Below are positions 1-56,400 of a DNA stretch of 64,000 nucleotides, piece after piece. Under the pieces are notes generated by a model that saw only the letters and a program-made list of their open reading frames with translations, was not told the DNA's origin and made no database searches. Positions within the stretch are counted from its first letter, which is position 1; each line of letters opens with the position of its first letter. Origin of the DNA: a virus (lineage: Duplodnaviria; Caudoviricetes); the IMG/VR virus record IMGVR_UViG_3300049792_000048, positions 32,001 to 96,000 of that record, one strand, 5' to 3'. A program made the position numbers and the translations under genes.

Positions 1-2
1 TC

Positions 3-461
3 GCAGCTCCAGTGATCGACACTGCCGGCAAGTTCACCAAAGGTGTCGTGAACACCAAGGGTGGCATCGCTCCTCGAATCGCAGGAGGGATCAAGGAGGT
101 CGGCCAGCACACCGTTGGAGATCTCGCAGCGAAGGCAGTGACCTCCGGTCTTGGAGGTGGCGTTCTCGCCGCGGCGAAGGAGGGCATCGAGCTACATCAT
201 GCTCGCAAGGCCATCCACAGCTACTTGGCTGAGAACAAGCTGAGCAGCCTCTTCGGAGGACCCCCTTCGGGCCCCGGTACCCCGAAGGTCACGGTCCCTT
301 CAGCGCCCACGCTCGGCGTGCTACGTGGCAGCTCGAACAAGTCGCAGCGTGTCGGCAACACCCCGATCGCCGCGAAGTCTGGTGTGACACGATCGTCGAG
401 CGGTGATCCCATGAATCCACGCCGCAATCTCAGCGACGCAATGCAGGCGTATAAGGCCTGA
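3..461 (+). CDS. Gly/Ala/Lys-rich hypothetical protein, probably 5'-truncated by the window edge (possible internal virion protein)
   Basis: Frame is open from the window start; composition resembles the 42964 ORF. Confidence 0.6.
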   Translation, partial: AAPVIDTAGKFTKGVVNTKGGIAPRIAGGIKEVGQHTVGDLAAKAVTSGLGGGVLAAAKEGIELHHARKAIHSYLAENKLSSLFGGPPSGPGTPKVTVPSAPTLGVLRGSSNKSQRVGNTPIAAKSGVTRSSSGDPMNPRRNLSDAMQAYKA

Positions 462-488
462 ATCCCCTATCAGATCGATGAGGACAAC

Positions 489-821
489 ATGATCAGGAAG
501 CTCGCTCTCGAACTCGCAGGGGACCTCACCGCTCGTGGTGGTGACAGCCCGCTCATCTCCGGTCCGAACGACCTCCGTCCCGCGGACCCGACCTCCTTCC
601 CGCTCAGCTTGAAGGCCGACACGCAGGGTCCGCTGACCGACCTCACCGTCGAGCGCCATCGCGAGACGATGCAGGGCGAGCTCGCCCGTACATTCGACAA
701 CTATATCCCGAGCGTCAACGACTTCCGCTCCTCCATCGGAGGTCTCATGCACGCGAAGATCGACGAGATCTCTGGCTCGACTGCGGCGTCGCAGGCGCTG
801 ACGCGTCACCGCTCGGCATGA
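489..821 (+). CDS. Hypothetical protein
   Basis: GAGGA RBS upstream; ATGA overlap with the sigma gene; begins MIRKLA. Confidence 0.7.
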   Translation: MIRKLALELAGDLTARGGDSPLISGPNDLRPADPTSFPLSLKADTQGPLTDLTVERHRETMQGELARTFDNYIPSVNDFRSSIGGLMHAKIDEISGSTAASQALTRHRSA

Positions 822-1606
822 CGACGAAGCGAAGCCCGTTCGACAAGTTCAACCGGGACGCGCGACCAATCACTGGAGGAGGGAGTAACGACCCTCACCG
901 CGCGCTCTGGAAGACTTGGCACGACAGCGGGAAGAAGCCGGAACACCTCGAACCTCTTCTCGATGCTCTCGAACCGACCATCCAGTCGTTCGCAAAGCGC
1001 AAGCTGAATGGCCTCGGAGGCTCGATCCCCTATTCAGCGTTGGAGCAGCAGCTCCGTATCGCTGCGAAGAAGGGGTTGGAGTCCTACGATCCAACGAGGG
1101 GGACGAAGGTCCGTACGCACATCATCACGAACTTCCAACGCATCACCGACTTCGTCGGAGGCAACCGGAACTTCGCGTATGTGCCGAAGCCTCGTGTGGA
1201 GAAGTTCCAGCGCTTCATGAACGCCAGGCACGAGTTCATGGAGCAGCATGGACACGAGCCCATGTTCAACGACATGAAGAAGCTGCTTCCCGATATTCCG
1301 GCCAACGACCTTCGGCCGATGATGTCGGAGTTTCGTACCGAGCACTTCATCGGAGGCAACCCGAACCCAGACGCCGAAGATGGAAGTCTCGGGCATGCTC
1401 CCAGCCAAGTGCGGAGCATCATTTCGCTCATGCCGGCGTTGCTGACGAGTGAGGAGCAGAAGGTCTTCGATCAGCTCTTCCCGACGGTGGGGGATCCCCC
1501 GAGCATCGCGCAGATCGCGAAGAAGACGGGGATGAACCAGAACCAGGTCTACAGGCTCCGTGGAGCCATCTACAAGAAGGTGAAGCCACATCTCGGTGGC
1601 GTCTGA
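818..1606 (+). CDS. Sigma70-family RNA polymerase sigma factor (compact, regions 2-4)
   Basis: Region 2-like YDPTRGTKVRTHI (cf. FDPxRGxKFSTYA); region 3-like HGHEP; C-terminal HTH PSIAQIAKKTGMNQNQVYRLRGAIYKKVK. Confidence 0.85.
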   Translation: MTTKRSPFDKFNRDARPITGGGSNDPHRALWKTWHDSGKKPEHLEPLLDALEPTIQSFAKRKLNGLGGSIPYSALEQQLRIAAKKGLESYDPTRGTKVRTHIITNFQRITDFVGGNRNFAYVPKPRVEKFQRFMNARHEFMEQHGHEPMFNDMKKLLPDIPANDLRPMMSEFRTEHFIGGNPNPDAEDGSLGHAPSQVRSIISLMPALLTSEEQKVFDQLFPTVGDPPSIAQIAKKTGMNQNQVYRLRGAIYKKVKPHLGGV

Positions 1607-1609
1607 GGG

Positions 1610-1631
1610 AGGCGGCTACGGCCGCCTTTTT
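1610..1631 (+). terminator. Rho-independent terminator after the sigma gene
   Basis: AGGCGGC-TACG-GCCGCCT followed by a T run. Confidence 0.85.
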
Positions 1632-1646
1632 CCTTTGCCCGTCTCA

Positions 1647-1661
1647 GCGTAGACTTCAGCG
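1647..1661 (+). promoter_or_regulatory. Putative -10 element (TAGACT) of a leaderless transcript
   Basis: TAGACT at 1650-1655, 6 nt before GTG 1662; 16/18 identical to 50437-50454. Confidence 0.6.
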
Positions 1662-1883
1662 GTGTCCGACGACCGCACTGCCGACCGCAACGCGAAACTG
1701 GATCGCCTCCAGTCCGCGTTCAACGAGTACTACGACCACGAGCACTCACGGCTCACGGACGAGTCCACATACCTGAAGTCGGTCCTTCGCGGTCGTACCG
1801 GCTCCGAGCGGCTGTCCCGTCAGAACACGGCGGAGGCAGAGGTGCTCGTGACCAATGACATCGAGAGCTTCCTCGCGGGGTGA
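1662..1883 (+). CDS. Small hypothetical protein
   Basis: 73-aa ORF with typical codon bias, between the terminator and the next gene. Confidence 0.7.
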   Translation: MSDDRTADRNAKLDRLQSAFNEYYDHEHSRLTDESTYLKSVLRGRTGSERLSRQNTAEAEVLVTNDIESFLAG

Positions 1884-1884
1884 C

Positions 1885-2847
1885 ATGCCAATCACGAATA
1901 TGCTGTTGACGCTCTCTCAGGTGGTGGTCGACCCGGCCACCGCTGTCACGACGTACGACTCGATCCGGTGGTCTCGCTCGATCACTGGTGCAAACGGCGT
2001 GTACGAGGAGATCTCGGCGTACACCGCTCAGCCGGCAGTCCTGACCGGAATGTTCCGTGAGCCTCACGCCCTCAATGGCAAGACCATGCTGTTCAAAGTG
2101 AACGGGGCCACGGTCGTCTCTGTCACGTTCTCAGGTTCCGACCCCTACAGCACCGCATCCGTGATCACGGACATCAACGGGGCCACGGGACTGGTGGTCG
2201 CTTCCGCCGACAGTCTTTCACAGCTAGTGCTGACGACGGTGCTGACAGGAACGGCGGCGTCGATCGAGATCTTGGAGTCTGAGGGAGCCCTCGCTCTCGG
2301 CTTCCAGACCGGAGACTTCGCGATCGGCAAGGGCGTGGACAACACCCTTGGCAGCACGCAACACGAGTACTTCTTCACCGACAGCAATGCCTCGAAGGAG
2401 TACTGGTACAAGACGCAGCTCCGGCATCACACGACGATGGCAGTGGCCCCGCAGAGCGTTCCGATCCCGGGCTCTGAGGTTCCCGTCATCGCGTACGACC
2501 TCCTGATCTCCGCATACGTGAAAGTCATCGACATGCGTGGGCGTCCCATCGAGGGCCGCAACATCGTCATCGCGAACGTCTTTCTCCCCAACACCGTGGG
2601 GGCGTACAACATCTTCCGGCACTACGAGGATGTCGCAACTGACGAGACTGGCTATGCCGTGATCCGTCTGCTGCGTGGCGCCACCATCGACGTGCACGTC
2701 GAGGGAACGAACTTTACTCGCCGTGTGAAGCTCCCTCTAGCTGGGGACCCTGTCGACCTCATCAACCTGTTCGACCCGGTGCTCAGCGACGAGGACGAGT
2801 TCGGTATCCAGCAGCCCGACATCAACTTCGCTATCCGTTTGAGCTGA
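1885..2847 (+). CDS. Putative virion structural protein (beta-rich, Thr/Val/Gly-rich)
   Basis: Composition; sheath/baseplate-like segment LVLTTVLTGTAASIEI...ALALGF; start moved to ATG 1885. Confidence 0.6.
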   Translation: MPITNMLLTLSQVVVDPATAVTTYDSIRWSRSITGANGVYEEISAYTAQPAVLTGMFREPHALNGKTMLFKVNGATVVSVTFSGSDPYSTASVITDINGATGLVVASADSLSQLVLTTVLTGTAASIEILESEGALALGFQTGDFAIGKGVDNTLGSTQHEYFFTDSNASKEYWYKTQLRHHTTMAVAPQSVPIPGSEVPVIAYDLLISAYVKVIDMRGRPIEGRNIVIANVFLPNTVGAYNIFRHYEDVATDETGYAVIRLLRGATIDVHVEGTNFTRRVKLPLAGDPVDLINLFDPVLSDEDEFGIQQPDINFAIRLS

Positions 2848-4353
2848 GTGATGAAGAAGCTCTCGGAGATCATCACAGAGCTGAAGCCGCATCAGCAGCG
2901 GGTGGTCGACCGTATCCAAAAACAGCCAGGGCTGGTTGTCGCTCACGGTATGGGCTCGGGCAAGACCCTGACCTCGATCGCCGCCGCAGAGCGCCTTGGT
3001 GGCAACACGACCGCGGTCGTCCCGGCATCGCTTCAGAGCAACTACCAGAAGGAGCTCGACAAGCATCTCAAGGGGACGCCGAACTCCAGCTACGACATCC
3101 AGAGCCTCCAGCGACAGGCCCTCCAGGGCAGCATCGCGCCCACGGATAATCTGATTGTCGACGAGGCTCACCGGATTCGTGACCCCTCCTCGATGTCGAG
3201 GAAGGTGGTCCGTGGAGCCGAAGCGAAGAAGCGGATGCTGCTGACCGGTACCCCGCTCTACAATCGTCCCTACGACATCGCATCGCTGGTCAATGTCGCC
3301 GCCGGCGAGAACGTCCTTCCTCCAGCCCAAGCCGACTTCGAGAAGCGCTACATCGGAGAGCGGAAGGTCGATCCAGGCTGGATTGCGCGCACGTTCCGTG
3401 GCGTGAAGCCTGGCTCGGTGGCGGAGCTGAAGCGCAAGGACGAGCTCTCGAAGATCTTGGGGCAGTGGGTCGACTTCCACGAGAACACGACCGAGAACTT
3501 CCCGACACGTCACGATGAAGTCGTGAACACCCCGCTTGGGAAAGAGCAGCAGAACGTCTACAACGCGTTGATGGGCGAAGCCCCTTCATGGATCAAGTAC
3601 AAGGTCCAACATGGACTTCCTCCGAGCAAGCAAGAGTCGAAGGACCTCAACGCGTTCTCCAGTGGTGTTCGTCAGGTCTCCCTGAGTCCTGCTGGCTTCC
3701 AGGAAGGGGTTACGCCCGATCAAGCCGCGGCGATGAGTCCGAAGCTTCAGACGGCCTACCAGCGGCTCTCTGATCAGATCGAGAAGAACCCGCAGCATCG
3801 AGCACTCGTGTACTCGAACTTCCTGGAATCAGGTCTTCATCCGTACGAGACGATGCTCCAGCAGGGGAAGATCCCCTACGGCAAGTTCACGGGAGAGCTC
3901 TCGAAGAGTGAGCGCGACCAGATGGTCACCGACTACAACTCCGGCAAGCTGAGAGCTCTGATGCTGTCGAGCGCGGGAGGCGAAGGACTCGACTTGAAGG
4001 GGACTCGACAGATTCAGGTTCTGGAGCCCCACTTCAACAAGGAGAAGCTGGAGCAGGTGATCGCTCGTGGTATCCGTTATGGCAGCCACGCCCATCTCCC
4101 GGAAGACCAACGAAACGTCGCCGTCGAGCACTACGTCTCGCAGCTCCCGAAGCCAGGTATCATTCGCAGGGCGTTCGGCGCGAAGCGTCCTGGCAGTATC
4201 GATGAGTACCTGCGCACGCTCTCCTCGCAAAAGGATGAGCTCAACCAGCAGGTGCGAGACATCCTGAAGACGACGACCGAGCAGCACTCTAAGACTTCGG
4301 GTCTCATGGATGTGGTGGTGTCGTACAGCGACTTGATGACGACTGTGTGTTAG
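2848..4353 (+). CDS. SNF2/SF2-type helicase/ATPase
   Basis: HGMGSGKT, IVDEAH, LLTGTP, SAGGEGLDL, QVIARGIRYGSH motifs. Confidence 0.9.
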   Translation: MMKKLSEIITELKPHQQRVVDRIQKQPGLVVAHGMGSGKTLTSIAAAERLGGNTTAVVPASLQSNYQKELDKHLKGTPNSSYDIQSLQRQALQGSIAPTDNLIVDEAHRIRDPSSMSRKVVRGAEAKKRMLLTGTPLYNRPYDIASLVNVAAGENVLPPAQADFEKRYIGERKVDPGWIARTFRGVKPGSVAELKRKDELSKILGQWVDFHENTTENFPTRHDEVVNTPLGKEQQNVYNALMGEAPSWIKYKVQHGLPPSKQESKDLNAFSSGVRQVSLSPAGFQEGVTPDQAAAMSPKLQTAYQRLSDQIEKNPQHRALVYSNFLESGLHPYETMLQQGKIPYGKFTGELSKSERDQMVTDYNSGKLRALMLSSAGGEGLDLKGTRQIQVLEPHFNKEKLEQVIARGIRYGSHAHLPEDQRNVAVEHYVSQLPKPGIIRRAFGAKRPGSIDEYLRTLSSQKDELNQQVRDILKTTTEQHSKTSGLMDVVVSYSDLMTTVC

Positions 4354-4356
4354 CCT
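4348..4356 (+). promoter_or_regulatory. Putative extended -10 (TGtTAGCCT), leaderless
   Basis: 6 nt before ATG 4363; no SD. Confidence 0.5.
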
Positions 4357-4362
4357 CCGGCC

Positions 4363-5286
4363 ATGGCAGTCGAAGTCGTCGATGTCTTGGTGCGGAGCGT
4401 CGCCGTTCCGAACCCGCCCACATCTGGAGTGTTGGTACGGGTCTATGACGTCACGGGCACGACGCTGATCACGGCCGGCATTACCGACGTCGATGGTCAT
4501 GTATCGTTCATGCTGGATGGAGGCAGCAGCAGCCACATCCGATATCAGCTTCGGACGTTCAAGATCGGGATGGCGCTGCCGCAGCCCGTGTACATCGACG
4601 TCTACTCGCCACCTGCGAGCTCACCGACCGGGACGAACAACTTTCGCCTCGATGCCGAGGTCTTCACGCTCCCGCCCGCAGTCGACCCTGCCCTGTGTCG
4701 CCTCAGTGGCTTCGTCCGTGACCCCGCCGGCCGAGCTCGTCGCGGCCTCGACATCCACTTCATCCACCGCTTCAAGCCCCTGATCGTGGGCGAGGGCGAC
4801 GACTCTGTCGGGGTCTTGGGTGAACGTATCGCAATCCGGACCGACAAGGATGGCTTCCTCCAAGTCGATCTTTATCGGAAGGGCTGCTACCACGCGATCG
4901 TGCAGAGCCACGAGAACGTAGCTCGTGATGTCTTCGTCCCGGACCTTGGGGCTGCGAACATCAACCTCGTTCTCTTTCCGCGCGTCTATGGGGTCGTGTT
5001 CACCCCCTCTACTTTGACGGTGGACGTGGGCACAACCCTCACGGTCAACGTGCAGGTTCAGCTCACCTCGGGGTACGTCATCAACGGCACGGCCTCCGAC
5101 GACATCGACTACAGCCAGCCAGATGGAAACCCGTCCGTTGATCTCCAGGTACTCGATGATCGACTCCTTCTTCGTGGACTCACAACCGGCGCTTCTACCC
5201 TCTTCGTCAAACGGAAGGACACAAGCCTCGCGTATGAACCCGACTCCCCCATCGTCGGCGATGCTACGACAATCCTCGTCGTATGA
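4363..5286 (+). CDS. Putative virion structural protein with beta-sandwich/Ig-like domains
   Basis: GVLVRVYD...TDVDG and TDKDG prealbumin-like fold motifs; C-terminal Big-2-like segment. Confidence 0.6.
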   Translation: MAVEVVDVLVRSVAVPNPPTSGVLVRVYDVTGTTLITAGITDVDGHVSFMLDGGSSSHIRYQLRTFKIGMALPQPVYIDVYSPPASSPTGTNNFRLDAEVFTLPPAVDPALCRLSGFVRDPAGRARRGLDIHFIHRFKPLIVGEGDDSVGVLGERIAIRTDKDGFLQVDLYRKGCYHAIVQSHENVARDVFVPDLGAANINLVLFPRVYGVVFTPSTLTVDVGTTLTVNVQVQLTSGYVINGTASDDIDYSQPDGNPSVDLQVLDDRLLLRGLTTGASTLFVKRKDTSLAYEPDSPIVGDATTILVV

Positions 5287-5605
5287 AGTCGAGGCGGAAG
5301 AGCCACTTCCGCGTGATCCTGGGCAGCGGCTGCTGACCGCAATCCTGGTGCGTGCCATCAGGGACTTCGTCAACTACCGCGAGGCCAGCAAGGGCACCGA
5401 TTCGATTCGGATCGCCGAAGACGCCGCGGGTTGGATCTTCTGGGACGGCAAGGAGGACATGACCTTCCGGCACGTCTGCACCTCCCTCAACATGAACTAC
5501 AGGGACGTCCGCCGTCGCATCCTCACGCTGACGAAAGAGGACCTGGTTCGCATGACTCCTCCGGAGAACGACGAGGCAGTTGGCTCCGACGAAGATGAAG
5601 ACTGA
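5261..5605 (+). CDS. Hypothetical protein (possible small DNA-binding protein)
   Basis: QRLLTAILVRAIRD...AAGWIF...TFRHVCTSLNM pattern; start uncertain (5234 or 5261). Confidence 0.6.
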   Translation: MLRQSSSYEVEAEEPLPRDPGQRLLTAILVRAIRDFVNYREASKGTDSIRIAEDAAGWIFWDGKEDMTFRHVCTSLNMNYRDVRRRILTLTKEDLVRMTPPENDEAVGSDEDED

Positions 5606-8136
5606 TGGCGGGATACACCTCAGAAGAGCTCCAGGCGAGCATCGATCAGTTCCTCTTGAGCACGGTCACGACCCCCAAGACGAACCTTGGTGCACGCGAC
5701 GTGCTGGCTGCACGGTCGGACATCTATGCCCTTCTGACGACCACGCTTCTTCTTCGCCCTGACAGCTACTTCTACGTGATCTGGCTGGCGAAGAATCGGC
5801 TCGAAGCTCTTCGTCGACAGCAGGCCGCAGCCCTCGCTGTCATCCTGGATCCCGCAACCACAGCGTCCCTTCGTCGACGAGGAAAGCCGGTGACCTCCAC
5901 CGCTGAGCTGACGAATGCTCAGGCGGCGCTGGTGAATGTCACTGCGGGCATCAATCAGGGTCAGGGTGTTCAGACCCGGGATCTCGGTCCCGAAGTGACT
6001 CGCTTCCGAAACAGCGTCGAGCGTTTCATCAACACGCAGATCAAGAGCAACGTCGTCAGCAACGGCGTGCCCACGGAGACCGCCGGCGAGACACGAGCTC
6101 GCATCGCGTCCTCGTGGGCGACCGTGAAGACGACACACGAACAGATGCTGGTGCTCTGCACGGCAATCATCGATGCCGTCAGCAACTTGAACTCGGTGAA
6201 GTTGCCGGAGCAGGCGGTCACGGGAGTCGTCTCGAAGCTTCAGGCCCGACTCACCGAGCTCACGGCTCAGCTTCAGGCGGACAAGGATGTCTCCACGCAC
6301 CGCGAGGCCATGCTCGACCTCTTGACGATGCGCACTCTGTTGGCCCGCGTGTCGTCCTTCCGTACGCCCCAACAGCTCCTGGCCCCTCTTGTCGGAGACT
6401 CCTCGCAGCTCACAGGCACTGGAGGAGTGAGTCCTGCGGCAATCGTTGGGACGAACAGTGGTCCCTTCAACGTGGCTCCGGCAGCCACGCTCGACTTCGA
6501 GTCAGGTAGTCCGATCGTCCCGTCGAGCATCACAATCGGGGCCTATAGCAACGCAGAAGCCCCCTCCCGTCAGTTCACCACCCTTCCCATCGTCTTCCCT
6601 GCGGGCGCGGCGCTCCGTCTCCGTGTCGATGGGGTCCTGTACCCGTCGGACGGGTCCTTCAGTAGCGCTTCTTACGCGTCGGTCGCGCTGTTCCTCACCG
6701 CCATTCAGAGCTACCTGACGGCGAACGTGGTGCCGGCAACGGCCTTCAGCGTCGGTACCCAGGTCTTCATCCGCAGCAACAGCTCTGCGGATGTCAGCAG
6801 CATCGAGGTGGTATCGGCAACGCTGGGACAGGCCGCGTTCCTCGTGGTCTCCGGCTTTGCTCCATACTCGGTGTGCCGTGGTGTCGAAGCGAAGACGATC
6901 ATCTCCGCAGCCACGTCTTCGCCAGGGGTACGGCTGTCTGAGATCAGGACCGAGTACTTCACGGGAAACGGAGTGACCCAGGCATCGTCGGTCATTCGCG
7001 TCGCAACCGTCCTCGGAACTGTGGATACGGCTGGCGGAGGGAGTTCGTTCTCTGCGGCTGAGAACATCGAGAATGCAGGAGTGAAGGTCAACGACTTCAT
7101 CATCATCGATCCGACGGGCACCGCACAGGTCGGAAAGATCACGCGGGTCTCGGGGGCCAGTTTTGATGTTGATGTTGATGTCTCCGACGTCGGGATCGTG
7201 GCCTACCGGGTCGGTCCGGATTTTCGCGGAGTTCCGGCTGGAGCTCGGGTGTTGGTCGGGTCGCCCACCGTCCCACTCAACCGAGGCCCCTATCGTGTCA
7301 TGTCGGGGACGATTGGTCAGATCACTGTCAACAGGACCTTCTTCACCACAAGCGACCCGATCTCCCTGACCGTCTTCACGTCGTACTTGCAGGCCACTGC
7401 CCCAGCTGCGACATCAGCCGATGGCATCACGGCTAACCCGTCCAGCGGAGGAGCGACGGCGGTCGGCTACACGGTCACGCCCACACAGACGAAGCCTGGG
7501 CTCACAGACTTCGTCTCGGGCGGGACGATCGACTTCTTCTCCCGAGGTGTCGGGGTTGGCGACTTCCTCACCCTGCTGACGGCTCCTTCGGCTGCGGTGA
7601 CCACCATCACCGAGGTCTTCATGGACGAGCTCATCGTCGAGCCGACCCCGTTCTTCGCAGGGTCGATTGGCTTCACCGTACAGAGCGCTCGCTACGCGTC
7701 GTGGACTATCTTGGTCAACGCCATCACGTCGTTCGTGAACGGCGCCGACTTCGGGGCAGCCGACTTCGCCATTACGCGCATTCTCAGTGGAGCAGACCCA
7801 CAGGTCCTGCTTTCGTCTTTTGGTCCGGTGGGCTTGTTTTCGACACAGGTCACATCTCTGGCGAGCATTCAGAACTACGTCGTTCCATTCGAGCGTACCG
7901 TCGACAACATCTTGAGGATGTTGGTCGAGCAGGGGTTCGATCGTGCCGCCGACCTCTTCACCACGCTTCAGGTGGTCGAGTTCTTCAGCATGCATCCTGA
8001 TGGCTCGTCCTATTCGACGAACCTGATCCGCGTCGCTGCGGATGTCACCAGGCAGGTCGCCCCGGTGTCCCGTTTCGCGAAGTCTGTGATCAACAGCCCA
8101 GAAGTGCGCCTACGCTCTCGTCGGATGACGACCTGA
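5605..8136 (+). CDS. Large virion structural protein (baseplate/tail associated)
   Basis: 843 aa; helical N-terminus, beta-rich body with GVxxGD modules; lies next to baseplate genes. Confidence 0.65.
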   Translation: MAGYTSEELQASIDQFLLSTVTTPKTNLGARDVLAARSDIYALLTTTLLLRPDSYFYVIWLAKNRLEALRRQQAAALAVILDPATTASLRRRGKPVTSTAELTNAQAALVNVTAGINQGQGVQTRDLGPEVTRFRNSVERFINTQIKSNVVSNGVPTETAGETRARIASSWATVKTTHEQMLVLCTAIIDAVSNLNSVKLPEQAVTGVVSKLQARLTELTAQLQADKDVSTHREAMLDLLTMRTLLARVSSFRTPQQLLAPLVGDSSQLTGTGGVSPAAIVGTNSGPFNVAPAATLDFESGSPIVPSSITIGAYSNAEAPSRQFTTLPIVFPAGAALRLRVDGVLYPSDGSFSSASYASVALFLTAIQSYLTANVVPATAFSVGTQVFIRSNSSADVSSIEVVSATLGQAAFLVVSGFAPYSVCRGVEAKTIISAATSSPGVRLSEIRTEYFTGNGVTQASSVIRVATVLGTVDTAGGGSSFSAAENIENAGVKVNDFIIIDPTGTAQVGKITRVSGASFDVDVDVSDVGIVAYRVGPDFRGVPAGARVLVGSPTVPLNRGPYRVMSGTIGQITVNRTFFTTSDPISLTVFTSYLQATAPAATSADGITANPSSGGATAVGYTVTPTQTKPGLTDFVSGGTIDFFSRGVGVGDFLTLLTAPSAAVTTITEVFMDELIVEPTPFFAGSIGFTVQSARYASWTILVNAITSFVNGADFGAADFAITRILSGADPQVLLSSFGPVGLFSTQVTSLASIQNYVVPFERTVDNILRMLVEQGFDRAADLFTTLQVVEFFSMHPDGSSYSTNLIRVAADVTRQVAPVSRFAKSVINSPEVRLRSRRMTT

Positions 8137-50415: not shown

Positions 50416-50445
50416 TTGACCCACCGTGATGCGTGCGCGTAGACT
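50416..50445 (+). promoter_or_regulatory. Sigma70-like promoter TTGACC-N18-TAGACT, leaderless, for the RNAP gene
   Basis: -10 ends 6 nt before GTG 50452; same architecture as 39506-39535. Confidence 0.65.
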
Positions 50446-53400: not shown

Positions 53401-56400
53401 CTCGCGAACGGCCGGATGATCCCGCCTCCGCAGGTCCCCTACGTCTACAGCAAGTTCGGAGCTCTGCTTCAGGCCACGGGCTTGAACCTGGAGAAGAAGG
53501 GCAGCCTGCTCAGCCTCGTTCCGCAGACCGATGCAGAGACGCTGAAGTGGGCCGGAGGCAAGAGCGGCAAGGTCACCGAGCCATCCCTCACCGTGGCAGC
53601 CAAGAACATGAAGCCGAAGAGCGGAGGCATCTTCGACCCGCACATCTTCGGCCCGGACAAGCAGCGTTGGGGCTACATCGAGCTCGCAGCGCCGATGCCG
53701 AACCCGATCTTCGCTGACTCGATTTCCTCGCTGCTGGGCATCCAGAAGCAGGACATCCAGAAGATTATCTCTGGTGAGATGAAGTTGAACGGCAAGATCG
53801 GGGGCGAGGCGATCCGCGAGGGTCTCGCCAAGATCAACGTCGATCAGAAGCTGAAGCACTACAAGGCGATGATCGACGATCCGAAGGTGAAGAGCAGCGA
53901 GCTCAACAACGCCATCTTCGCGTACAAGTCGCTGCGTGCGCTGAAGGAGCACGGCAAGACGCCTTCCGAGGCGTACACGATGAAGTTGCTCCCGGTGCTT
54001 CCTCCGATCTACCGTCCCTTCCAGGAGAGTGCGGAGGGCACCGACCGCATCGATCCGCTGAACCAGCTTTACCGCCGACTCGGTATGGTGAACTCGTCGT
54101 TGGAGGCCTCGAAGAAGGAAGGCATCCCCGACCGCCGTCTCCTTCAGGCGCAGGGTGATCTCTACCAGGAGATGCAGAACCTTTTTGGCACGACCCCGAA
54201 GGGGAAGAAGGCGCTCGACATCGACTTCCAGGGCAACCCTGTGCGAGGTCGTTTCCTGCCCGGCATCTTGCACACCATCGCGGGTGACTCGCCGAAGGAT
54301 GGCTTCTTCCAGGACAAGGTCATCGGCAAGAAGCAGGACTACACAGCACGAGCCACGATCGTCGCTGACCCAGGTCTCGGTGCCGATGAGATTGGCGTGC
54401 CGAAGAAGATCGCCTTCGAGCTCTTCCGGCCTGTGGTGGGGCATCGCCTCGTGCAGATGGGCTACAACCCGATCCAGGCGCAGCAGGAGATCTCGAAGCG
54501 CTCCGCGGTGGCCGAGGCTGCTCTCCAGCGAGAGATCGAAGAGCGTCCGGTCTTGATGAAGCGTGACCCCGTGCTCCACCAGTACGGCATCATCGGTCAG
54601 AAGGTGAAGCTGACGGATTCGCGAGCCATCAAGGTGAGCCCGCTCGTTCTCCCTCCGATCGGTGGAGACATCGATGGCGATACGGTGGCGCTGTTGCTCC
54701 CCATCCAACACGCCGCAGTCCAGGAAGCGTACAAGCTCCTCCCGTCGAACCGGTCCATCTCGGCAAGTACGGGAGAGGTCCTGTTCACTCCGACGAACGA
54801 GGCGATGCTGGCCCTCTACCGCATGTCCCTCAAGAAGCGGGAGACGAACCAGACGTTCGCATCGTCGAAGGAGGCAGAGGCCGCCTTCGTCAACAACAAG
54901 GTGAACCTCGACGACGTCATCACAGTCGGTGGGCACCGCACCACGCTCGGTCGTGTGCGTATCTCCCACGTCGTACCCGAGCAGTACAAGACGAAGGTCC
55001 TCACTGACATCGACACCCCCATCTCGAAGAAGTTCGTCACGGACATGCTGCGTCAGACGGCGCAGCACTCGCCGGCGACCTTCGAGCCGTTCACGCGCAA
55101 CCTCACCCAGCTCGGCTTCAAGATGGCGTTCGAGAGCGGGCACACTGTGCGGCTGTCGGACTTGGAGCCGATGCGGGTCGAGCGCGCAAAGATCATCGCA
55201 GCTGCGAAGGGACGTGCCGAAGGCAAGCCCGACGCAGAGCGGACGCAGATCTGGATCGACGCCACCAAGAAGCTGCACGAGACGTACGACGAGCACTTCA
55301 AGAAGCACCCCACCAACATCTCGGACATGCGGGCCTCGGGCATCAAGGCCAAGAAGGAGCAGTTCCAGGGCTTGGTGATTGCTCCGATGCTTGTGGAGAA
55401 CCACCTCGGGCATGCCTCGAAGGTGCCGATCACTCGCTCGTTCTCAGAAGGCATCGACGTCGGCGGCTACTTCCTCCAGGCAGCAGGAGCTCGGAAGGGC
55501 ACCATTCAGAAGGTCGACGCTGTCCGTGATCCCGGCGTGCTGACGAAGGAGCTCATCCAGTCCAACATCGACTCGCCCATCACGGCGATGGACTGCGGAA
55601 CCCACTCGGGCATCAGCCTCGGCGTCAACGACCGCGACCTCGTCGACCGCTACCTCGCTTCTCCCGTCACAGCCGGTGGCAAGACGATCCCTGCTGGCAC
55701 CGTCATCACCCCCGGGCTTCAGCAGACCTTCTCGAAGTCGGGTGTCACGAACCTGTTCGTGCGGTCTCCGCTGAAGTGCCGCATGCCGCACGGTATTTGT
55801 TCGACCTGCATGGGCAAGCACCCCTCCGGAGTCAACTACGACTTGGGTGACAACGTCGGCATCATGGCGGCTCAGGCCATCGGTGAGCGTGCTGCACAGC
55901 TCATGCTGAAGCAGACGCACAACCAGGGCATCGTCCCGACGCAGCGTGGTGCCGTCGACGAGTTCAGCACAGTCGAGCGGGTGTTCGGGGTGGCGAAGCG
56001 CTCGCCAGTTGATGCGATCATCGCTCCGCGTGCAGGCCTCATCACCCGTGTCGAGGCTCAGCCGCAGGGTGGCCACAAGATTCGCTTCGCGGAGAGCAAG
56101 GTCGATCTCTACTCTCGGCAGCCGCTTCTTCCGCACGTGAAGGCCGGCTACAGGTTCCAGCGCGGTGAGCAGCTCTCAGAGGGCGACCCGAACCTCAACA
56201 TGCTGCTCAAGACCCGTGGTCTCGAAGCGACACAGGACCACATGGTCGATCGCATCGGGAAGATCTACGAGAAGGAGGACGTCCTTCGTCGTCACGTCGA
56301 GCTTACGGTCCGCAATGCAACCAGCACGGTTGAGGTGTCGGACCCGGGCGACCACCCGACCATCCTCCGTGGGGACCATATGCAGTTCCCCATGATCGAG

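Follow-up and report, generated by a model that had tools for sequence, protein, structure and literature searches.

The stretch of DNA analyzed here, a 64,000-nucleotide window spanning bases 32001-96000 of the 195,774-bp virus record IMGVR_UViG_3300049792_000048, comes from an uncultured phage of ~196 kb (GC ~61%) whose record bears direct terminal repeats. We find that the open reading frame (ORF) at 818-1606 of the window encodes what is, by profile alignment and predicted fold, a real and very divergent bacterial-type sigma70-family factor. This protein, P0001, probably confers promoter specificity, as a dedicated subunit, on the RNA polymerase that the phage itself encodes, a single-chain beta-beta' enzyme whose gene lies farther downstream in the window. 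A partnership between the sigma and the fused polymerase had been put forward in the original prediction made from this DNA. Co-occurrence of the two proteins, the presence of a single sigma and a single polymerase in the genome, a predicted interface and the particle preparations of the cultured Salmonella phage Arash all argue for it, short of proof.

Taken alone, P0001 has no Pfam or PHROG family match at E<0.01 and nothing significant in NCBIfam, and at relaxed thresholds its Pfam signals are weak (Sigma70_r2, E 0.099; Sigma70_r3, E 0.28). The best direct signal is to the FliA/WhiG model of NCBIfam (TIGR02479, E 0.0018), with the RpoD model at ~0.002; at 18.1 bits against a curated cut-off of 189.6, P0001 falls outside the FliA/WhiG family as curated. 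A single-sequence search of the PDB returns SigA chains at E ~0.3, with an alignment that is plausible through regions 2.2-3.0. P0001 has 35 close relatives in a 90%-identity database, several of them on contigs of 160-197 kb, and among 50%-identity representatives 522 relatives are found at E<=1e-3 and 169 at E<=1e-10. A family profile of 26 sequences matches RpoD/SigA at E 7e-10 over profile positions 82-255 (regions 2.2-4.2). The wider, 108-sequence profile A2 reaches E 6e-19 and also matches RpoS, SigB, FliA and SigF, the FliA and SigF chains at ~1e-12. Pfam recognizes Sigma70_r3 in 77 of these 108 family members, Sigma70_r4 in 19 and Sigma70_r2 in one, and judged by these matches region 2 is the divergent part across the whole family.

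The AlphaFold2 model of P0001, with a mean predicted local distance difference test (pLDDT) score of 75, places four helices at residues 26-116, three at 124-171 and four at 195-259, and leaves an acidic loop at 174-193 disordered. In a Foldseek search of the PDB the top matches to this model are all SigA, RpoS or SigB chains at probability 1.0; low template modelling (TM) scores come as no surprise, since the protein has several domains and was modelled in the absence of its core enzyme. On the combined evidence of profile alignments, model and Foldseek, P0001 was correctly described at the outset as a compact sigma that has regions 2, 3 and 4. Profile alignments begin in region 2.2 and run through region 2.4, where Foldseek also places the model on SigA. 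Domain 3 and region 3.2 are marked by the Sigma70_r3 matches and by the strong conservation of the acidic loop, and domain 4 by an RpoD alignment that extends to residue 255, by the Sigma70_r4 matches and by the modelled helices at 195-259. The acidic finger (IGGNPDP..DDGSLGHAPSQ) is among the best-conserved stretches of the family.

Features of a group 1 (RpoD-like) sigma are missing from P0001: it has no region 1.1, its N-terminal extension is ~25 residues long and the aromatics of region 2.3 are changed. Judged by its sequence, P0001 is not a primary sigma. Its closest cellular likeness is to the bacterial group 3 sigmas (FliA/WhiG, SigB/F/G), which share the sigma2-sigma3-sigma4 arrangement, the lack of region 1.1 and a length of ~250 residues. 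Unlike them, P0001 scores far below curated cut-offs and has QQLR instead of QEGN in region 2.2, and its phage brings its own core. No Lys-x-Ala site is found when the sequence is read by eye, and nothing suggests that the protein is processed.

Region 2.3 of P0001 reads THIITNF (residues 100-106). In the alignment to RpoD, H101 falls at the position of Y430, W433 lies in a gap and W434 stands opposite a threonine, so that the original observation of a stretch without the usual aromatics is borne out. The conclusion drawn from it, a different specificity in promoter melting, was overstated: most close relatives carry W, not H, at the Y430 position (RTWVI.NF; the wide-family consensus is THV), and Q107 and T110 align with RpoD Q437 and T440, the residues that contact position -12 in E. 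coli. As the WW pair is often absent from alternative sigmas (groups 3 and 4), its lack marks P0001 as an alternative-type sigma and not as an unprecedented protein. In region 2.2, QQLR with an invariant R80 stands where cellular sigmas have QEGN, a substitution that suggests an interface adapted to a non-host core.

The sigma family and the polymerase are coupled phyletically. Relatives of the polymerase are encoded on 19 IMG/VR contigs; the sigma family is present in every one of the nine whose completeness is 90% or more (E 1e-45 to 1e-85), and the ten without it are fragments, 8-45% complete. Relatives with the fused polymerase but without the sigma, which would have spoken against the partnership, are thus not seen among near-complete genomes, even though in two of the nine the polymerase is only ~30% identical to that of the window. 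When 50,697 cultured or deposited phage records were searched with P0001 and with the distant family medoid P0129, only Arash and the Vibrio phages D69, D181 and D148 were recovered. Among cultured phages these four also have the polymerases nearest to that of the window, and in Arash and D69 the presence of the sigma is confirmed by the A2 profile. The statement that distant sigma relatives always sit in polymerase-bearing genomes thereby covers IMG/VR and cultured phages; for the distant members P0129 and P0143, no related loci were found in IMG/VR. Sigma and polymerase identities drop in parallel across relatives (92/96, 56/74, 41/55 and ~26/32%). Searches with A2 did not find this sigma family in the polymerase lineages of Rhizobium phage RHph_Y65 and Cobetia phage Carin-5.

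Carin-5 (L046, PV155638.1 122613-126466) has a gene annotated as a 196-residue 'RNA pol sigma factor' directly before two polymerase subunit genes, and its product is not a member of the P0001 family. The pairing of a phage polymerase with a sigma of its own may have more than one origin.

The polymerase ORF is a fusion of beta and beta' (Pfam Rpb2_6, 2.8e-49; Rpb1 domains 1, 2 and 5). It forms one chain in the clade of the window and is split after ~residue 1492 in Arash, D69 and three further relatives (G017, G019 and L029), into a beta+beta'N chain of ~1470 residues and a beta'C chain of ~610. From these sequences, fusion of beta to beta'N is common to the whole polymerase group. As distant carriers of the sigma have the split enzyme, the association with the sigma is older than complete fusion. 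Homing endonuclease genes lie near the polymerase in some of the Vibrio phages. The genome inventory comprises one polymerase and one sigma, P0001, and searches for alpha (PF01193) and omega (PF01192) that were positive in all 14 control genomes found neither in this genome. A second Sigma70_r4 signal (G000:25699-25824, 24.5 bits) is not a sigma but the C-terminal helix-turn-helix of an HNH homing endonuclease.

The segment of bacterial beta' that comprises the lid, clamp helices and rudder has its counterpart in residues 1167-1333 of the polymerase (alignment E 1e-13). Co-folding with the phage polymerase, proposed with the original prediction, was run on sigma residues 26-122 and polymerase residues 1040-1500 and scored 0.67, with 0.01 for the best of three controls; of the solved complexes 58 of 80 score this high, against 2 of 110 mismatched pairs, counts that are approximate because the alignments were custom-made. 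At least 95% of contacts recur between runs, with a partner pLDDT of at least 81, and the confident contacts set sigma residues 70-85 (region 2.2, R80 included) on polymerase residues 1200-1240, the clamp helices. What this model shows is a retained likeness to the textbook sigma/beta' interface and not binding. Since sigma/beta' complexes have already been solved, the score may also reflect what the predictor learned from them.

If P0001 serves the phage core, it would act as an initiation factor made of sigma2, sigma3, the 3.2 finger and sigma4, with no region 1.1. Region 2.2 would dock on the beta' clamp helices and the acidic finger, conserved across the family, would reach into the active-site cleft, with regions 2.4 and 4.2 reading phage promoters. 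Together the two polypeptides would make up a minimal holoenzyme that lacks alpha and omega. The divergence of region 2, where the region 2.3 aromatics are changed and the Pfam r2 model fails, would also suit a sigma-derived DNA-binding regulator or decoy that is no longer an initiation factor. We regard such a role as very improbable: the three domains and the 3.2 finger are strongly conserved over hundreds of 50%-identity clusters, the length of the family is stable at ~250-290 residues, and the core-binding helix is confidently predicted on the clamp helices.

P0001 might instead redirect the core RNA polymerase of the host, leaving the phage polymerase to initiate alone or with another, unrecognized factor. 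T4 gp55, SPO1 gp28/gp34 and phiEco32 gp36 act in this way; these phage proteins, too, belong to or derive from the sigma70 family, and they switch promoter specificity. These phages have no polymerase of their own, whereas here sigma and polymerase share one genome. Bacterial-type boxes speak for host-type transcription in the programme of the phage, in the form of TAnnnT at 12 nucleotides before eight start codons and of TTGACC-17-TAGACT before the polymerase gene. We nonetheless consider a role on the host core unlikely. Among the 50,697 phage records the family never occurs without the phage polymerase, it is present in all nine near-complete relatives, and the genome offers no other candidate initiation factor for that polymerase. 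The phage polymerase, moreover, keeps the clamp helices on which co-folding sets region 2.2, and QQLR with R80 in place of the cellular QEGN suggests adaptation to a core other than that of the host.

The Salmonella phage Arash connects P0001 to the virion. Its Gp10, annotated as 'RNA polymerase sigma factor RpoS' (PMC10585845), is matched by the A2 profile at E 5.8e-55, which makes it a member of the P0001 family, and it lies in the same gene neighborhood. The Arash polymerase, Gp206/Gp216, is homologous to that of the window at 30-35% identity, and its SNF2 protein, Gp217, is orthologous to that of the window. Arash differs in that Gp10 is only ~27% identical to P0001, over residues 30-148, and in that its polymerase is split after ~residue 1492; the N-terminal FDxFN extension is missing in Arash. 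Mass spectrometry of Arash particle preparations detected Gp10, the polymerase proteins Gp206 and Gp216 and the helicase Gp217, with Gp10 at 100% coverage and 24 unique peptides; the Arash paper lists the sigma and polymerase proteins without a functional study (PMC10585845). The window and Arash share the gene order Gp8-like large protein, small ORF(s), sigma and Gp13-like large protein. The placement of the sigma among virion genes, as first described, holds insofar as the large ORFs on either side of the gene are similar to Arash Gp8 and Gp13, both detected in particles by mass spectrometry; for the window itself it rests on this homology. By analogy with Arash, polymerase and sigma may travel inside the virion and, once injected, start early transcription. 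Such a system would join the virion-packaged polymerases of phiKZ/AR9 and of N4.

Several points weigh against P0001 as the specificity subunit of a packaged phage enzyme. For every member of the sigma family the role is a prediction. The divergence of region 2 goes so far that 107 of the 108 family members are missed by Pfam Sigma70_r2. Reproducing the textbook interface, the co-fold model does not separate the phage core from the host core, and the co-occurrence of sigma and polymerase could reflect two core genes of one phage lineage. The host RNA polymerase, furthermore, probably takes part in the programme, because the polymerase gene carries a near-canonical TTGACC-17-TAGACT promoter, so that action of the sigma on the host core keeps a place among the explanations. 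Finally, the Arash preparation also held ribonucleotide reductases, deoxynucleoside monophosphate (dNMP) kinase and pyrophosphatase, and its authors allow for carry-over of abundant proteins (PMC10585845); because of these metabolic enzymes and the possible carry-over, packaging of the sigma is uncertain.

The sigma gene appears to form a unit with the small ORF upstream of it, P0201. The two share the sequence ATGA (818-821), in which the P0201 stop and the sigma start overlap, an arrangement that suggests translational coupling. P0201 has no match in Pfam, PHROG or NCBIfam, and it was rejected as an anti-sigma or conserved partner because it is kept only in the two closest relatives. A ribosome-binding site and the motif CCTATCAG (466-473) precede P0201. 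A k-mer and gapped-dyad search of intergenic DNA gave nothing strong besides CCTATCAG, and with one mismatch allowed the motif has no more matches across the window than expected by chance; its signal emerges only once orientation and distance to start codons are considered. CTATCA occurs 38 times in the genome, ~25 times in the extended form CTATCA(G/A)-N3-4-(G/A)TGA(A/G)G before a ribosome-binding site and start codon. The extended copies stand 20-30 nucleotides before starts, often right after a hairpin and T-run, with AATC or AAAC a few bases upstream. Examples are found at positions 466, 39501(-) and 50384(-) of the window and at 134989, 143052, 151683, 154838 and 167039 of the genome. 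A CTATCAG-type motif also lies ahead of the sigma unit in related loci (L006, L007, L034, L035/L036 and L040), in which the intervening ORF differs or is absent. In these alignments its conservation is a phylogenetic footprint, and taken together the copies resemble a class of promoters whose leader is conserved.

At its other end the sigma gene has its own terminator, as first noted. The hairpin at 1605-1632 has a six-pair GC core and a UACG loop (dG -21.2 kcal/mol, z -2.5), with U5CCU3 as its tail; hairpin and T-run are kept at the same place in L006 and L007, with a different stem sequence in L007. A simple promoter/terminator scanner found no sigma70-type promoter in positions 1-6000 and did not list the sigma terminator. 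The sigma would accordingly be co-transcribed with P0201 from the conserved CTATCAG element and end at this hairpin.

A second class of element, TAnnnT, lies exactly 12 nucleotides before eight start codons and almost nowhere else, with none at 13 and one at 11, a spacing that would imply leaderless mRNAs. Its sites include positions 50440 (polymerase gene), 1650, 4351 and 8157 of the window, genes flanking the sigma among them. The polymerase gene shows the near-canonical arrangement TTGACC-17-TAGACT-6-GTG upstream. Tentatively, we can picture P0001 and the polymerase as the smallest bacterial-type holoenzyme known, packed in the capsid, injected and reading the CTATCAG class (early/middle), with TAnnnT (late) left to the host polymerase, a scheme that on balance we find doubtful. 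Such joint reading of the two classes would be an N4-like division of labor.

The original prediction allowed for a third component, a RapA-like SNF2 ATPase; acting like RapA, it would recycle or remodel the polymerase. The ATPase itself was placed correctly, ~1.2 kb downstream: its ORF starts 1242 nucleotides after the sigma stop codon and has SNF2-rel_dom (5.8e-18) and Helicase_C matches. Arash Gp217, 39.5% identical to it over 481 residues, is encoded directly after the beta'-C gene Gp216 and is abundant in virion preparations, and a RapA-like role has been proposed by Iyer et al. for a different SNF2 helicase linked to phiKZ-like phage polymerases (PMC7824862). Proximity to the sigma in the window and to the polymerase in Arash is what favors a three-part machine, and the remaining evidence does not sustain it. 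An orthologue (E<=1e-10) is present in only 3 of 11 genomes with both polymerase and sigma (G001, G002 and Arash) and missing at that threshold from G003, G010-G013, G017, G019 and Vibrio phage D69; a Pfam SNF2 scan of these eight genomes found only other, differently placed SNF2 proteins. In L008 the SNF2 gene does not adjoin the sigma. Beyond these genomes, a close homologue turns up in a single phage record, that of Pseudanabaena phage PA-SR01 (37% identity; L052, MT234670.1 25081-26877), in whose genome no polymerase and no beta-like domain were found. In PA-SR01 only a few genes separate the homologue from the major capsid gene, a placement that hints at a virion-associated, transcription-unrelated role. 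The SNF2 protein is thus not coupled phyletically to the polymerase. Nor does it bear a RapA signature: it is a bare ATPase core of 501 residues that lacks the N-terminal polymerase-binding domains of RapA, its best NCBIfam matches are to other SNF2 helicases, far below cut-offs, with none to RapA, and a PDB sequence search matches ISWI, Rad54 and CHD and not RapA. We consider a three-component machine of polymerase, sigma and a RapA-like SNF2 decidedly improbable.

Phage polymerases with a specificity subunit are already known; what is new here is that the probable subunit is a genuine sigma and its core a minimal, fused one. AR9 gp226 and phiKZ gp68 resemble P0001, in its proposed role, as phage specificity subunits that bind a phage multisubunit polymerase in the fashion of a sigma (PMC9209446). 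The structure of AR9 gp226 is reported to show sigma2-like, finger-like and partly sigma4-like elements, and phiKZ gp68 to be related (PMC9209446). These proteins are sigma-like only in structure (9.6% identity), with no sigma4 helix-turn-helix and with large extra domains (PMC9209446), whereas P0001 belongs to the sigma70 family by sequence profile and has a complete sigma4 helix-turn-helix. The AR9 and phiKZ subunits serve split, very divergent non-virion polymerases, whereas P0001 goes with a bacterial-like fused core.

Iyer et al. described polymerase-encoding group 1 jumbo phages as having no sigma and sigma-encoding phages as having no polymerase (PMC7824862), a dichotomy repeated in a 2026 review (PMC13282480). 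In a full-text literature search we found, the Arash genome report apart, no study that analyzes the pairing of a sigma70-family factor with a bacterial-type core encoded by the phage. The clade described here, with hundreds of 50%-identity metagenome clusters and four cultured phages, joins the two strategies described as exclusive. A capsid-injected holoenzyme of two chains would, if real, contradict the split between phages with a polymerase and no sigma and phages with a sigma and no polymerase. If the sigma serves the phage core, the pair would be a natural minimal two-chain holoenzyme with no alpha dimer to scaffold assembly, useful for studying what sigma and core need of each other and how fused cores assemble, and as an orthogonal transcription system. 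Since Arash and the Vibrio phages are cultured, the question of which core the sigma serves is directly testable.

Table 1. Positions in the window of the sigma gene, its domains and neighbors, and the polymerase.
Feature	Position	Strand	Description
Sigma70-family factor P0001	818..1606	+	ATG-to-TGA ORF, 262 aa; assigned by homology and fold
Sigma domain 2	893..1165	+	residues 26-116; region 2.2 at ~70-85 with invariant R80; region 2.3 THIITNF
Sigma domain 3	1187..1330	+	residues 124-171, three helices; Pfam Sigma70_r3 in family
Acidic region 3.2 'finger' or linker	1337..1396	+	residues 174-193; disordered in model, conserved
Sigma domain 4 with helix-turn-helix	1400..1594	+	residues 195-259; Pfam Sigma70_r4 in family
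Small ORF P0201, 110 aa	489..821	+	stop overlaps sigma start
CCTATCAG motif heading the sigma transcription unit	466..473	+	22 nt before ATG at 489; putative promoter
Intrinsic-terminator-like hairpin and U-rich tail	1605..1637	+	GC core 1611-1616 pairs with 1621-1626, loop UACG
TAGACT box and 73-aa ORF P0202	1650..1883	+	box 12 nt before GTG; ORF 1662-1883
SNF2-family ATPase, 501 aa	2848..4353	+	SNF2-rel_dom, Helicase_C; Arash Gp217 orthologue
Single-chain beta-beta' RNA polymerase, 2065 aa	50452..56649	+	GGDIDGD catalytic loop, residues 1404-1410
Clamp helices of beta' part	54049..54171	+	polymerase residues 1200-1240; predicted dock of sigma region 2.2

A few further loci deserve mention. 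The 73-residue, helical P0202, encoded directly 3' of the sigma, is more conserved than the sigma itself (57-92% against 35-92% identity) and follows it in every relative of the fused-polymerase clade. It belongs to no known family, and its 48 relatives lie largely on contigs as long as those of the sigma relatives. P0202 could be an accessory of the polymerase or sigma, or a virion protein. Upstream of the window, a 394-residue protein with a C-terminal NADAR domain (1.8e-26) is encoded at G000:24290-25474 (-), and 5.6 kb before the window lies the HNH homing endonuclease gene (G000:25693-26370 (-)), whose called start is preceded by a CTATCAG motif at a distance of 11 nucleotides.

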